Source of the DNA: Deltaproteobacteria bacterium
GTDB lineage: Bacteria > Myxococcota_A > UBA9042 > PHBI01
Assembly: GCA_006226565.1 (NCBI GenBank)
Contig: SBGO01000480.1
Location: 1-53,003, forward strand
DNA length: 53,003 nucleotides
Direction of reading: 5' to 3'
Made by a program: the position numbers and the translations under genes. The notes below the pieces were generated by a model that had not been told where the DNA came from, ran no database searches, and saw only the letters and a list, made by a program, of their open reading frames with translations. Every line of letters starts with the position of its first letter. Positions within the stretch are counted from its first letter, which is position 1. Shown here piece after piece: positions 8,070 to 26,527 of this stretch.

Positions 8070-8132
8070 TGGTGCGAAAGGGGGGACTCGAACCCCCACA
8101 GGCATATTGCCCACTAGAACCTGAATCTAGCG
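8070..8132 (-). repeat. att site: 63-bp duplicate of the tRNA-Leu(CAG) 3' part
   Basis: Identical to 26440-26502; lacks the tRNA 5' end and D-arm. Confidence 0.95.
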
Positions 8133-8312
8133 TGAGAGCCAAGCGCCATGCGGGCTTCCGCCACAGTAACGATCAATCGGGCCCGGATTTCCGTCAACCC
8201 CGCTTGGTGCTTGGTTCCGCGAGTCTCAGCTCGGTCGGGCAGCTCACACATACGGCGGCGCACAGGATGGTGCCGTCGATGCGATGTAAGTCCTCGGATT
8301 GTCGGAGGTAAC

Positions 8313-8603
8313 ATGGTTGACCCCACCCCCCTCGACGGAGGCGACGGCACCATCACCGTCGGCCAGGCGCGACGGCTCAACATCGCCGACCCGAAGAGGG
8401 GGCCGGAGACGCTCAACCGGGTCGCGCGTTGGATGCTGACGGGCGCGATCCGGCCGGACCTCGCCCGGACCTTCGCGTACCTGGCGCAGGTCGCCGTGCG
8501 AGCGTCCGACGTGGCCGACCTCGCCGAGCGCCTCGACGCCCTCGAGGATGCGCTGAAGGGTCGGGACATGACAACCGCAGGAGGGCGTCATGCGAAGCAC
8601 TGA
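8313..8603 (+). CDS. Small hypothetical protein with C-terminal LAERLDALE coiled coil (DUF5681-like)
   Basis: GGAGGT RBS before ATG 8313; GAIRPDLA...LAERLDALE pattern resembles small proteins of integrative/satellite elements. Confidence 0.6.
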   Translation: MVDPTPLDGGDGTITVGQARRLNIADPKRGPETLNRVARWMLTGAIRPDLARTFAYLAQVAVRASDVADLAERLDALEDALKGRDMTTAGGRHAKH

Positions 8604-8781
8604 CCGCAAGCGACTCGATCGCCTGACCACAAGCGCGGACGGGGTTTGCCGCTACTGCGGCCGAGGGCCCGCGTCGGAAGAGCAACAGCGTGAGCTGACG
8701 GACGAGGAGGTCGCCGAGATTCTGCTTCTCGCGGCCGATGCCTTGAGGTTCGTGGACTGGGGCGCCGGTCAAGACGACTGA
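8590..8781 (+). CDS. Small hypothetical protein with CxxC
   Basis: GGAGGG RBS, overlaps the upstream gene end, CRYC motif. Confidence 0.45.
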   Translation: MRSTDRKRLDRLTTSADGVCRYCGRGPASEEQQRELTDEEVAEILLLAADALRFVDWGAGQDD

Positions 8782-9124
8782 GTGGAAGGCGACCGACCAT
8801 CTCCGGTCGGCGCGGAGCCGCGGCTCGCGGCGACGCCAAGCAGGCATCGAACGTGCGTGCGGCTCGTTGCGAGTTGGGGGCCGCCGCCCCACGTGCTCCG
8901 CACCGTGCGGGTCGCGCCGTTGCCGCGGTTGATGGGCACGTTAGCCTCTGCCCGTGGACCCTGCGGCGGCGAGCCGAGCGGCACTGTCCGGTCGACAAAG
9001 GGAGAGTACGCGTTGAACATGGTGGTTGTGCCGGCTGAGTTGCCTTCCACGTCGACGCTCGCGATTGCGATCTCGTGCAGCGCGCGATCGACGCCGGCCA
9101 CCTGAAGCGATGTGAGGTCGAGTC

Positions 9125-9334
9125 ATGAGGTTCATCGTAGTCGAGCGCGGTCCGATCCTGTGCAGGTTCAAAGACGGCTCGGTCGGAGTGATACCGAACC
9201 CGAACGACGACGAGGCGATGATGCGTGGCGTCGTCGAGGCCGAGACGCGCGATGAGGCGCTCGCGAAGGCTCAAGCCACTATCAAACTCGATGGTGACTC
9301 GGAACACTACACGCTCGACGTCATCGCGGACTAG
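9125..9334 (+). CDS. Small hypothetical protein
   Basis: GAGG RBS, protein-like composition, ATGA overlap with the upstream frame. Confidence 0.55.
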   Translation: MRFIVVERGPILCRFKDGSVGVIPNPNDDEAMMRGVVEAETRDEALAKAQATIKLDGDSEHYTLDVIAD

Positions 9335-9899
9335 GCGAACTCGACGACCGCAAGCGCTCATCGTCTGCGTCAGCGCGTCGCCGCCCCCGCACGAGGTCGG
9401 ACTCCGTCATGAGCTTGGATTCGACGCCGGCTCGACCGAGACGGTCGTGGTCGTCGAGGCGTTCTTCGGGGAGTGGATGCATTTCGGAGGTAGACGCCTC
9501 AGCGGTCGTGCGCGGCCGACGGCCGCGATCCCGTCCTGGGCGGCTCGTACTCGTGGTGGGACCGTTTCGCCTATGCGGACTCCTCGACGGCTTGGCCGAG
9601 AACGCCCCTGGCGGCTGCGTGGTCCTCGCAGGTGGACTTCGGCCGGCGCGGACCCCGACGCCGCGAGCCGGCCGTATCTCGCGTGCCCTGGAGGTCGTCC
9701 TGGGCGGGTCCAAGCCGGGCGACGAGCGGGACCACGAACGGTCGCGGTCGGGCGTCACGGGGTCGGGGGGACCTGCGTCTCTGTCATCTGCCTCGTCGGC
9801 AAGCGCGAGGGTGATTGGCCCCATTGGCAGCGCAAAAGGACCATTTGTGCCCTTCTACGACCCGTATCCGTCGTCAGCGCCCTTTTGCCGTGCGTCGTG

Positions 9900-24714: not shown

Positions 24715-24734
24715 ACGCGACCCGTCGGTATCAT

Positions 24735-24789
24735 CTCACCCGTTGGGGGCGCCTACCTCACCCGTTGGGAGCGTTCACCTCACCCGTTG
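24735..24789 (+). repeat. Three iteron-like direct repeats (putative origin)
   Basis: CTCACCCGTTG at 24735, 24757, 24779: exact 22-bp periodicity. Confidence 0.8.
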
Positions 24790-24937
24790 CAGGACCTGAC
24801 ATTCAGTCGGAATGGGGCTCGTCGGGGTGTCCGACCTTAACGGTACGGAACGGTAGTGTAGTCCGCGGCCGCTACGCGGTGCCGCCTGACGGCGTCACCG
24901 ACGCGGCCGCAGTGCAGTCGACGGTCGGAGGTGCGGC

Positions 24938-25375
24938 ATGAGCGCCTCCGACAAGGTCGACGTCGGACCGCCGGGTGTCGAGACGGGGGCGGCGCGTCGG
25001 AAGCGTGTGCTGGCCGGCATGTTAGCGGCTGCCCACGCGCAGGAGGCGTCGGCGCGCGCACAGGCGGAGTCGGCGCGCGCACAGGCGGCGTCGGCGCGCG
25101 CACAGGAGGAGACGGCGCGACGGCTTCGCGAGCTTGCGGCGCTGCTGGCGGATGAGTCAGGATCAGGGGGACTGGAATCCGGGCCCCTCAACGACGAGGG
25201 CCTGGGATGGGACGAAACTACGATGGAGATCGAGCGCGACACAGATGGAACGGACGGCTTCAACGATGGGAGATCGTCGTTCACGAGACGGTCGACGGAC
25301 GAAGGACGAAACGTTGCGTCCTTTGTCCGCCAGCGACTTCGGAAGCCGCGGCGGTCCAAGCAGCCGCCGAGCTGA
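24938..25375 (+). CDS. Hypothetical protein with heptad repeats, overlapping the integrase 5' end
   Basis: GGAGG RBS; three 21-bp tandem units (25049-25111) encode SARAQAE/SARAQAA/SARAQEE. Confidence 0.5.
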   Translation: MSASDKVDVGPPGVETGAARRKRVLAGMLAAAHAQEASARAQAESARAQAASARAQEETARRLRELAALLADESGSGGLESGPLNDEGLGWDETTMEIERDTDGTDGFNDGRSSFTRRSTDEGRNVASFVRQRLRKPRRSKQPPS

Positions 25376-26487
25376 CGGCGGATCTGCGGGCGAAGCGCCT
25401 GCACCTGCCGCGGACCTGGGATGAAGGCGTGGAAGCGTACCACCAGCACAGGCGCGAGATGGGCGACGAGGAGGACACGATCGAGACGTCGGGCTACAGG
25501 CTGAAGGCCGTCGGGCGCACGCTGAGCGCCCCTGATCCGCTGCGGCTGACCGCGGCGCAGGGGCTTCAGCATCGCAACGCTCGACTCGCCGCGCCGCGGA
25601 GCCCGGTGACGGTGAACGCCGAGCTGTCCGAGGTGCGGATGATGCAGGGGTTCTTCCTCAAGCGCGGCTGGATCGAGAAGGTGACCTGGACGGTCGATGA
25701 CGTGACCCCGGCGTCGACCAAGAAGGTGAAGCCTCGTGCTCACCTTCGACCGGGCGAGGTCGGACCGTGGCTGACGGCGGCCTTCAAGCGCGGGGACACG
25801 ACGGAGTGGGAGCTGTGGCCGGCCGCCGCGATCCTGCTCCTGCACGGGCTGCGCACGGGCGAGATGCGCACGCTCTCGGTCGGCGACCTCGACCTCTGGT
25901 CGCCCGTCACGATCGGCGGCTACGAGCAGAACATCGTCGTCGCCTACGTCGAGGACTCGAAGACCCCCGACGGCGTGCGCCCGGTGCCGATCGTCAGCGA
26001 GCTCGCGTGCGTCACGCTGCGCCGGGCCTTCCAGGGGCGGCCGGCGGACGAGCCGTGCTTCTGGGCGGCGCGGTCGCGGTCGAGCACCAAGCGCTCACGG
26101 CTGCCGAAGCGGACCGAGTGGTTCCGCTACCGCGCCAAGCTGACGTGCGAGGACGCCGGCATCGCGCGGAGCGTCTCGACGCACGGGCTCCGCCACTCGA
26201 CGGGAACGCTCCTCGTGAGCCTGCCCGGCGTCGACTACTACGGCGCCGGCAAGGCCCTCGGGCACAGCGACCCGTCGATCACGGACAAGGTCTACGCCCA
26301 CGCCGCCCTCGCGCCCCGCCTGGGGCCGATGTCGGCGCTCGGGACCTTCCTCGACCGCGTGGCGCCTGGGGTTGACGGGTATCCGTCGAAATATCCGTCA
26401 AAAGCAGAAGAGGCCGACCCTCGCGGATCGGCCTCTTCTTGGTGCGAAAGGGGGGACTCGAACCCCCACAGGCATATTGCCCACTAG
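25207..26487 (+). CDS. int: Tyrosine recombinase/integrase
   Basis: GLRTGE (R), SKT (K), HGLRH, LGHS, VYAH (Y) catalytic motifs; adjacent to the att site. Confidence 0.92.
   Translation: MGRNYDGDRARHRWNGRLQRWEIVVHETVDGRRTKRCVLCPPATSEAAAVQAAAELTADLRAKRLHLPRTWDEGVEAYHQHRREMGDEEDTIETSGYRLKAVGRTLSAPDPLRLTAAQGLQHRNARLAAPRSPVTVNAELSEVRMMQGFFLKRGWIEKVTWTVDDVTPASTKKVKPRAHLRPGEVGPWLTAAFKRGDTTEWELWPAAAILLLHGLRTGEMRTLSVGDLDLWSPVTIGGYEQNIVVAYVEDSKTPDGVRPVPIVSELACVTLRRAFQGRPADEPCFWAARSRSSTKRSRLPKRTEWFRYRAKLTCEDAGIARSVSTHGLRHSTGTLLVSLPGVDYYGAGKALGHSDPSITDKVYAHAALAPRLGPMSALGTFLDRVAPGVDGYPSKYPSKAEEADPRGSASSWCERGDSNPHRHIAH
26406..26439 (-). terminator. Element-supplied hairpin after the restored tRNA-Leu
   Basis: AGAAGAGGCCGA...TCGGCCTCTTCT stem directly after the CCA end. 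Confidence 0.65.
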
Positions 26488-26527
26488 AACCTGAATCTAG
26501 CGCGTCTACCAATTCCGCCACTTTCGC
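26440..26527 (-). tRNA. tRNA-Leu(CAG), integration target
   Basis: Cloverleaf GCGAAAG acceptor, anticodon arm CTAGA-TTCAGGT-TCTAG, long variable arm, GTTCGAG T-loop, CCA. Confidence 0.97.

Follow-up and report, generated by a model that had tools for sequence, protein, structure and literature searches.

Integrative islands that replicate on their own and carry immune systems have been characterized mainly in Pseudomonadota (GIsul2/PIME, SGI1) and in Firmicutes. SGI1-type integrative mobilizable elements and actinomycete elements such as pSAM2 excise, replicate as plasmids and reintegrate. Here, we analyze an 18-kb island at tRNA-Leu(CAG) on contig SBGO01000480.1 of a Myxococcota-type genome (Deltaproteobacteria bacterium, GCA_006226565.1); the whole stretch of 53,003 nt is referred to as the window, and all coordinates are window positions. 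The general picture is that the island is probably an integrative element with its own plasmid-type replicon, i.e., a replicative integrative element; such a design has been described in other bacteria and not in this group.

The closest described systems are elements with a RepA-family helicase. A 2017 review counts GIsul2 among the integrative mobilizable elements that encode RepA and RepC (PMC5704250). A preprint of January 2026 outlines the PIME family as consisting of int, alpA, a replicase gene and trbJ/trbL, with helper plasmid-induced excision, repA-dependent replication, an iteron-type oriV mapped just downstream of repA and large immune-system cargo, and in its account PIMEs are confined to Pseudomonadota (bioRxiv 10.64898/2026.01.12.698999). 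In GIsul2 as present on pAB3, we find genes for integrase, AlpA, RepA helicase, RepC and TrbJ-TrbK-TrbL, with arsenic-resistance (ars) cargo on the opposite strand. On pTC-F14 (IncQ2), which served as the IncQ reference plasmid, repA is followed by repC and then by 22-bp iterons (4.9 copies) at the end of repC. The island in the window follows this order from a recombination gene through a helicase gene and an initiator-like gene to tandem repeats.

A bounded insertion at tRNA-Leu(CAG)

The two ends of the island, positions 8070-8132 and 26440-26502, are identical across 63 nt when compared by script, and lie 18,370 bp apart from start to start; a repeat finder paired the slightly longer segments 8058-8132 and 26428-26502 (75 nt, 93% identity). 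The 63-bp repeat is the 3' part of tRNA-Leu(CAG), and the chance that such an identity arose at random within 53 kb is negligible. The perfect att repeats and the integration into tRNA-Leu given in a preliminary description of this DNA, made from the sequence alone, are thus borne out. The G+C content per 1-kb bin is 0.615-0.708 between the repeats as compared to 0.71-0.75 just outside. In a genome of the same genus (G001), both flanks are located on a single contig, the tRNA is present and the island is absent. There, a native-looking gene (736 aa, GC3, i.e., third-position G+C, 0.95; L042 3304-5511) lies next to the tRNA, between it and the 6S RNA region, and in another genome (G004) 8.3 kb of unrelated sequence come after this tRNA. 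Neither G001 nor G004 contains a second copy of the tRNA end. From the repeats, the G+C content and the comparison with these two genomes it therefore follows that the 18,370-bp stretch is a real, bounded insertion at tRNA-Leu(CAG) and that this site is variable among relatives. It is the downstream side of the tRNA gene that varies: the window has approximately 485 nt of non-coding DNA (7585-8069) where G001 holds the 736-aa gene and G004 the 8.3 kb of other genes.

The left flank contains a 6S RNA gene (7333-7524, - strand; Rfam RF00013, 72 bits), which accounts for a non-coding stretch of approximately 300 nt that is conserved in G001 (85%) and G004 (77%). The hairpins at the two junctions are unusual. 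A terminator-like hairpin at ~26405-26439, on the island side of the intact tRNA gene, is similar to the tRNA terminators native to G001 and G004 (L042, L043), whereas the hairpin to the left of attL (8041-8069) is unlike them; simple integration predicts the reverse. Capture of the attP arm from a related chromosome, or remodelling of the left junction, may account for this.

The putative replication module and its relatives

The helicase encoded in the island matches the Pfam families AAA_25 (1.9e-30) and DnaB (8e-14). In BLASTP, 83 of 281 residues are identical to RepA of pTC-F14 (30%, E 9e-22), and the protein matches 270 plasmid records, 238 of them classed as "mobilizable", in which the gene product is annotated as "helicase RepA family protein" (29-30% identity). 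The helicase start codon, GTG 21860, overlaps by 4 nt with the stop codon of a preceding gene for an 85-aa protein (21860-21863), and the helicase stop codon overlaps in the same way with the start codon, GTG 23323, of the gene that follows (23323-23326). The genes for the 85-aa Xis-like protein, the helicase and the third, initiator-like protein therefore look translationally coupled. A second, distant relative of the helicase (30%) is present elsewhere in the same genome (G000:C352:676-1518, L002), in a 924-aa frame on a 3-kb contig.

The gene at 23323-24714 had originally been regarded as an orphan. A word-index search with its 463-aa product gave 12 relatives, none of them with a Pfam domain, and a family profile built from these 12 and run against 1.84 billion representatives retrieved at least 1,152 related clusters at E<=1e-3 (563 at E<=1e-30), so that the orphan label can no longer be upheld. 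Of 47 longer family members that were scanned, 46 match no Pfam family; P0157 (789 aa), one of the 47, is fused N-terminally to a DnaG-type primase (CHC2 zinc finger and Toprim). Neither the protein nor the relatives that were scanned match PF06504 (RepC).

An AlphaFold model of the initiator-like protein was calculated from the 12-row alignment (mean predicted local distance difference test score, pLDDT, 79) and compared with known folds using an exhaustive structure aligner (VIA). The model aligns with domains 2-3 of RctB (5ubf_A, Z 7.3, 202 residues), with Pi in complex with iteron DNA (2nra_C, Z 6.9, 201 residues) and with RepA of pPS10 (1hkq_B, Z 5.5, 107 residues); there are many further matches to single winged helices, covering 60-100 residues each. 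The aligned core spans residues ~123-407. Values of Z around 7 are common for this aligner, so these matches fit the context and are no proof. They weakly suggest that the family has a tandem winged-helix core like that of iteron-binding initiators. Some weak rows from BFVD carry the name "replication initiator" (E 0.2-0.9) and were not used as evidence.

Just past the stop codon of the initiator-like gene lie three direct repeats with a 22-bp period (CTCACCCGTTG...), in agreement with the iterons noted beside the backbone in the preliminary description. They are followed by the motif ACGGNACGGNACGG(N)AGTGTA, which lies where the A+T content is locally higher, and then by a G+C-rich hairpin.

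Is this arrangement peculiar to the island? The initiator-like family is present in 9 of 107 genomes of the class, and a scan of a genome-contig collection gave a single initiator-like locus. We examined 14 close loci from genomes and metagenomes, 12 of which could be assessed upstream and 13 downstream of the initiator-like gene. In 11 of the 12, a RepA-type helicase gene of the same orientation immediately precedes the initiator-like gene (L023 is the exception). In 10 of the 13, tandem repeats with a period of 20-23 bp (2.5-4.6 copies) follow within ~300 bp of the stop codon, and each element has repeats of its own sequence, as is the case for cognate iterons. The motif ACGGNACGGNACGG(N)AGTGTA, again at a place of locally higher A+T content, and a G+C-rich hairpin after it are found 110-170 bp past the stop codon in seven of the 13 loci; among the 107 class genomes, the motif occurs once each in five, always adjoining the initiator-like gene (reversed control 0).

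When all window proteins were compared by BLASTP with all open reading frames (ORFs) of eight loci, only the helicase and the initiator-like protein found matches; relatives of the integrase, the Xis-like protein, the product of the 336-aa gene at the head of the backbone, the heptad ORF or the small genes were not detected in these loci. The recombinases of the relatives belong to different tyrosine families or are of the serine type (L008). As judged by sequence comparison, it is thus the replication module, consisting of helicase gene, initiator-like gene and iterons, that is conserved, with recombinases being swapped, and the notion of a backbone conserved as a unit does not hold.

Relatives of the element occur both integrated and as a closed circle. 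In G007, a genome of the same family as the window genome, 85-nt att repeats bound an island of 7.4 kb at tRNA-Phe. Its genes for an integrase, a helix-turn-helix (HTH) protein, a CHC2 primase-like protein, the helicase and the initiator-like protein are joined by 23-bp repeats, and there is no cargo. In G082, genes for an integrase, a PriCT_1 primase, the helicase and the initiator-like protein come with repeats and the motif; beyond these lies a restriction-modification gene of the MmeI type, which is encoded on the other strand. Two metagenome contigs from two assemblies, L056 (7,796 bp) and L057 (7,818 bp), each have an exact terminal overlap of 123 bp. Positions 1-5889 of L056 are 100% identical to positions 1930-7818 of L057, and the remainder differs by one 22-nt gap, which corresponds to one iteron (3.0 versus 4.0 copies). 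From the terminal overlaps and the permuted identity it follows that L056 and L057 are permutations of one closed circle of ~7.67 kb. Besides the helicase and the initiator-like protein, its gene products are a tyrosine integrase, an 80-aa protein, a CHC2 primase-like protein, an HTH protein and a pentapeptide-repeat protein. The circle is the strongest evidence that elements bearing the module exist outside the chromosome. The pentapeptide-repeat protein (L056 694-1527; PF00805, 1.6e-66) is the only obvious cargo of the circle. A further relative, L055 (= L008; 8,879 bp), has first 1,050 and last 1,044 nt that are 83% identical, each with a helicase gene, and a serine recombinase gene between these ends. 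Such a structure suggests either two related elements joined in tandem or a duplication that has since diverged.

Recombination genes and defense cargo

As the DNA has a G+C content of 70%, ORFs were picked by GC3. Twenty-six ORFs were scanned with Pfam, 18 with PHROGs and 18 with NCBIfam, and PADLOC was run in addition. Pfam matched seven of the 26 ORFs and PHROGs three of the 18, namely the helicase, the integrase and an Mrr-like protein (Table 1). No family for capsid, portal, terminase, relaxase, type IV coupling protein (T4CP) or type IV secretion system (T4SS) was matched in these scans, in line with the original statement that capsid, portal, relaxase and T4SS genes are missing. The cargo from 9321 to 20436 is encoded entirely on the - strand and the backbone throughout on the + strand, so that the co-directional backbone with defense genes on the opposite strand was described correctly.

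Table 1. Features of the island and its insertion site in the window
Feature	Position	Strand	Evidence
attL, displaced copy of the 3' 63 nt of tRNA-Leu(CAG)	8070..8132	.	Identity with 26440-26502
Small ORFs 8148-8603, 8590-8781, 9125-9334 (8782-9105 doubtful)	8148..9334	+	ORF list, GC3 0.76-0.78
Two cargo ORFs without family match, 10131-10667 (GC3 0.84) and 10714-11454	10131..11454	-	
OST-HTH/LOTUS-domain protein, cargo	11484..12482	-	PF12872, E 9.4e-6
Mrr-type nuclease, PADLOC candidate system PDC-S02	12842..13858	-	Mrr_cat 3.5e-23; PDC-S02 3.2e-86
HsdM, type I restriction-modification methyltransferase	13855..16041	-	N6_Mtase 2.7e-61, HsdM_N; MTase_I 3.2e-190
HsdS, type I restriction-modification specificity subunit	16058..17566	-	Methylase_S; Specificity_I 1.5e-97
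HsdR, type I restriction-modification restriction subunit	17563..20436	-	ResIII, EcoEI_R_C, HSDR_N; REase_I 4.7e-46
336-aa ORFan, first in the backbone run	20523..21533	+	GC3 0.82; no family match
85-aa excisionase-fold (MerR-like winged-helix) protein, putative Xis/recombination directionality factor	21606..21863	+	Predicted fold
Replicative helicase, DnaB N-terminal domain and AAA_25 (IncQ RepA family) core; longest ORF from 21701	21860..23326	+	
Initiator-like protein, 463 aa (earlier "orphan"), Pfam-less family, predicted tandem winged-helix core	23323..24714	+	
Three direct repeats, 22-bp period, putative iterons	24735..24790	+	Repeat detection
Origin motif in locally A+T-richer stretch, then G+C-rich hairpin ~24865-24910	24840..24860	+	
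145-aa ORF with 21-nt (heptad) tandem repeats; 3' end overlaps integrase frame	24938..25375	+	
Tyrosine integrase, ORF running into attR and tRNA	25207..26487	+	Phage_integrase 2.1e-11; phrog_1 2.7e-32
Intact tRNA-Leu(CAG); its 3' 63 nt (26440-26502) = attR	26440..26527	-	ARAGORN, Rfam

The 85-aa protein does not match any Pfam family, even at E<=5, and BLASTP against the HTH_17 protein of L023 and against AlpA of GIsul2 gave nothing. Its AlphaFold2 single-sequence model (core pLDDT 78-87) found 12 rows at Z>=5, six of which are excisionases or close kin. These six are Pukovnik Xis (Z 6.2 over 53 residues), a putative excisionase from Klebsiella (6.0), the DNA-binding protein 4lhf of phage P2 (6.0), the GIsul2 excisionase 8c3t_A (5.4, 56 of 57 residues), RdfS (5.2) and Tn916 Xis (5.0). 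The top row, tied with the excisionases, is 6hn7_B (Z 6.6), a protein from a study of packaging redirection by PICIs. Foldseek against the PDB yielded no match at E<=1e-3. We read the protein as a putative excisionase-fold protein, the tie leaving a small opening for a phage satellite. The earlier label Xis/AlpA-like accordingly leans on the predicted fold, not on Pfam.

The first gene of the backbone had been taken for an HTH gene. The 336-aa product contains no HTH and has no relative: its sole match among 5.8e9 proteins is the protein itself. At the other end of the backbone, ~170 nt belong to both the heptad ORF and the integrase ORF, read in different frames, and the coding signal switches near 25300, leaving the true ends of both uncertain; the end of the integrase ORF falls within the tRNA. 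The nearest integrase homologs, L063 (G007:C32, 43% identity) and L064 (G022:C2, 38%), both adjoin tRNA-Ala(CGC), and the islands in which they are found carry no helicase/initiator module. A search for syntenic elements at tRNA-Leu in related genomes, proposed along with the original claim, found none. A promoter and terminator scan of 20300-26600 gave nothing above shuffled sequences.

In the cargo, which includes two or three ORFs that match no family, HsdM is of unusual length (728 aa) and weakly matches DUF1257 at its C terminus (9.5e-5). The small ORFs on the + strand to the left of the cargo do not match any Pfam, PHROG, NCBIfam or PADLOC family.

Maintenance, spread and comparison with known systems

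The replicative integrative element that we favor would work as follows. Integrase and the 85-aa protein would recombine the 63-bp core in tRNA-Leu(CAG), and excision would release a circle of 18,370 bp. Judging from its anatomy and from its relatives, the initiator-like protein would bind the three 22-bp iterons past its stop codon, open the neighboring A+T-richer stretch with the ACGG-repeat motif and then load the RepA-family hexameric helicase. Priming would probably be left to the DnaG of the host, recruited via the DnaB-type N-terminal domain of the helicase; relatives encode CHC2 or PriCT primases of their own. By homology, the type I restriction-modification system and the Mrr-like PDC-S02 protein would defend the host and probably also stabilize the island. 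As there is no transfer or packaging gene in the element, its spread would have to depend on a helper or on a passive route.

Helper phages and conjugative helpers are roughly equal, minor rivals as agents of this spread. If the island were a minimal, PICMI-like phage satellite, a helper phage would induce its excision and replication and the helper terminase would package it into helper capsids, without any capsid or terminase gene of its own. The relatives of 7.4-7.7 kb with int, a small winged HTH gene and primase/helicase genes do recall PICMIs as these are outlined in the literature (PMC10803314), and the tie of 6hn7_B with the excisionases points in the same direction. VirB4 (PF03135), MOBP relaxase (PF03432) and VirD4-type T4CP (PF02534) were unmatched in the 94.8%-complete host genome, other relaxase families not having been searched, which speaks for phage help and against conjugation. 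However, terS, capsid, portal or other virion families were not matched in the island, the PICMI markers AlpA (PF05930/PF12728) and DUF3987/DUF5906 primase were likewise unmatched, relatives of the initiator-like protein are lacking among 2.9 million IMG/VR contigs, and iteron replicons that have a helicase of their own are typically those of plasmids. We therefore consider a satellite unlikely. About equally unlikely is an integrative mobilizable element for which, after excision, a co-resident conjugative element would provide both the relaxase that nicks an oriT and the T4SS used for transfer, as with PIME, GIsul2 and SGI1. Here, the GIsul2/PIME layout of int, AlpA, RepA helicase, initiator, iterons and opposite-strand cargo is a point in favor, as is the predominance of IncQ-type RepA helicases on mobilizable plasmids (238 of 270 records), and the conserved motif and hairpin past the iterons could be a nick region. 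Against this, trbJ/trbL, traJ, relaxase and T4CP families are unmatched in the element, and the motif is strictly tied to the initiator-like gene, which it adjoins in five of five genome occurrences; it therefore fits a part of an origin better than an oriT matched to a helper. The preliminary description had left open whether the island is satellite-like or belongs to an integrative-plasmid family. Its tRNA boundary, plasmid-type replicon, defense cargo and lack of detectable transfer or virion genes are confirmed, and nothing that was tested favors the satellite half of the claim over the integrative-plasmid half.

Least probable in our view is an immobile remnant, i.e., a single arrival that is now a fixed defense island whose replication and recombination genes no longer act. 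Neither an attP nor an attB joint is present in the assembled Logan contigs of three runs of one study, one of which may be the source of the window, the integrase and heptad ORFs overlap with a weak coding signal within the overlap, and the first backbone gene is an ORFan, all of which would suit a remnant. On the other hand, the att repeats agree in all 63 nt, none of the backbone ORFs is interrupted, two junctions between them look translationally coupled, and the island is absent from the same-genus genome G001. In one of the runs (X1), the mean word depth is 33.2 for the island contig (18,023 bp), 24.9 and 22.8 for the flanks and 48.1 for the unitig of the 63-bp repeat; word depths do not give copy numbers, the difference could be due to G+C bias, and nothing is drawn from it.

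The lack of att joints in these runs also weighs against a replicative integrative element, and several further results have to be set beside it. The assignment as an initiator is weak, the structural scores being middling. With the model of the protein, Foldseek found nothing at E<=1e-3 in either PDB or BFVD, the family profile gave only a chance match (E 7.2) to PDB sequences, and tblastn against 72,556 plasmid records had no match. Homology to RepC is rejected (hhalign against pTC-F14 RepC, probability 0.2%), and no primase family was matched in the island by the Pfam scan. The repeats at 24735-24790 could instead be arm sites of the integrase or operator sites. With the window helicase as the query, one of 12 loci (L023) lacks a helicase, and three of 13 (L052, L054, L059) lack tandem repeats. 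The contig names of L056 and L057 suggest related samples; the two may stem from one campaign and may not be independent.

Beyond the single island, we suggest tentatively that helicase, initiator-like gene, 22-bp iterons and ACGG motif could represent a class of IncQ-like replicons that is widespread and so far undescribed, and whose initiators form a new family (at least 1,152 clusters). Such replicons would shuttle between a tRNA site and a small free circle, and would spread defense genes in Myxococcota and other high-G+C environmental bacteria without a conjugation or virion gene of their own; we regard this as possible rather than probable. The initiator family is not covered by Pfam and yet has more than 1,000 relatives in metagenomes, and three parts are now offered that can be tested: the initiator family, its iterons and the conserved origin motif. 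If the proposal is true, the minimal members of 7.4-7.7 kb would be ready-made autonomous replicons for a phylum that is very poor in working plasmids. The island itself would illustrate that a defense island can be mobile without a recognizable transfer gene. According to one account, plasmids are known from no more than two myxobacterial organisms (PMC11705834), and a 2026 preprint reports many myxobacterial plasmids as software predictions (10.64898/2026.09.14.751636). Given this scarcity, a 7.5-kb replicon, once verified, would be of use as a genetic tool.

How does the element compare with other replicating or mobile systems? With Pi of R6K, RepA of pPS10 and RctB of Vibrio chromosome 2, the initiator-like protein would share the core of the predicted fold and the position of its gene next to tandem repeats. 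It differs from these initiators in lacking sequence similarity to them, in having ~120-400 extra N-terminal residues of variable length in its family and in the pairing of its gene with a helicase gene of its own (11 of 12 assessable loci). PICIs, cfPICIs and P4-like satellites are marked by packaging or capsid-hijack genes (terS, ppi/cpm, sid/psu/delta, capsid genes). Together with PICMIs they resemble the element as small islands at tRNA genes or gene ends with int, a small winged HTH regulator, a replication gene and defense cargo, whereas terS, capsid-remodelling and other packaging families are unmatched here (Pfam, PHROG). Of the families by which PICMIs, located next to fis, are characterized, namely int, AlpA (PF05930/PF12728) and a DUF3987/DUF5906 primase (PMC10803314), only int is matched in the window element. 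The initiator-like protein also appears to be of a different class from the initiators of SGI1, for which a Rep_3 protein is listed (PMC5704250), and pSAM2. Neither the FtsK-like Tra protein of actinomycete integrative and conjugative elements nor traN/G/H of SGI1 is matched by Pfam, and the relaxase, T4CP and T4SS families of integrative and conjugative elements in general are likewise unmatched.

With IncQ plasmids, the element has in common a RepA-family helicase, followed by an initiator gene (initiator-like here) and tandem 22-bp iterons at the 3' end of that gene. In RSF1010, hairpin ssi priming sites are located beside the iterons, and it is by analogy only that the motif and hairpin of the window resemble them. 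In contrast to IncQ plasmids, the element is integrative rather than a free plasmid, and a RepC homolog, a RepB-type primase and mob genes are unmatched in it. The closest likeness is to GIsul2 and the PIMEs. All have, in the same order, an integrase at one end of a bounded element (Table 1), a small AlpA protein or, in the window, a putative Xis protein, an IncQ-type RepA helicase (29% identity between the window and GIsul2/PIME proteins), an initiator or initiator-like protein and an iteron oriV (putative in the window), and the PIMEs, as outlined in the preprint, also have a big accessory region with immune systems. The modelled 85-aa protein aligns with the GIsul2 excisionase without an alpA match in Pfam, and the initiator-like gene is placed between helicase gene and iterons just as repC is in GIsul2. 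The differences are equally clear. The initiator is unrelated in sequence to RepC, the helicase has an additional DnaB N-terminal domain, the insertion site is a tRNA gene instead of guaA, trbJ/trbL, trbK, traJ and relaxase are unmatched (Pfam, NCBIfam), and the host is of the Myxococcota type, while the preprint reports PIMEs from Pseudomonadota only (bioRxiv 10.64898/2026.01.12.698999). The suggestion that the element family is undescribed for its lineage is thus correct for the lineage and for the initiator, and less so for the architecture, which has already been described for GIsul2/PIME of Pseudomonadota. By analogy, the window element can be called PIME-like in its layout for excision and replication, yet it is not a member of the PIME family.

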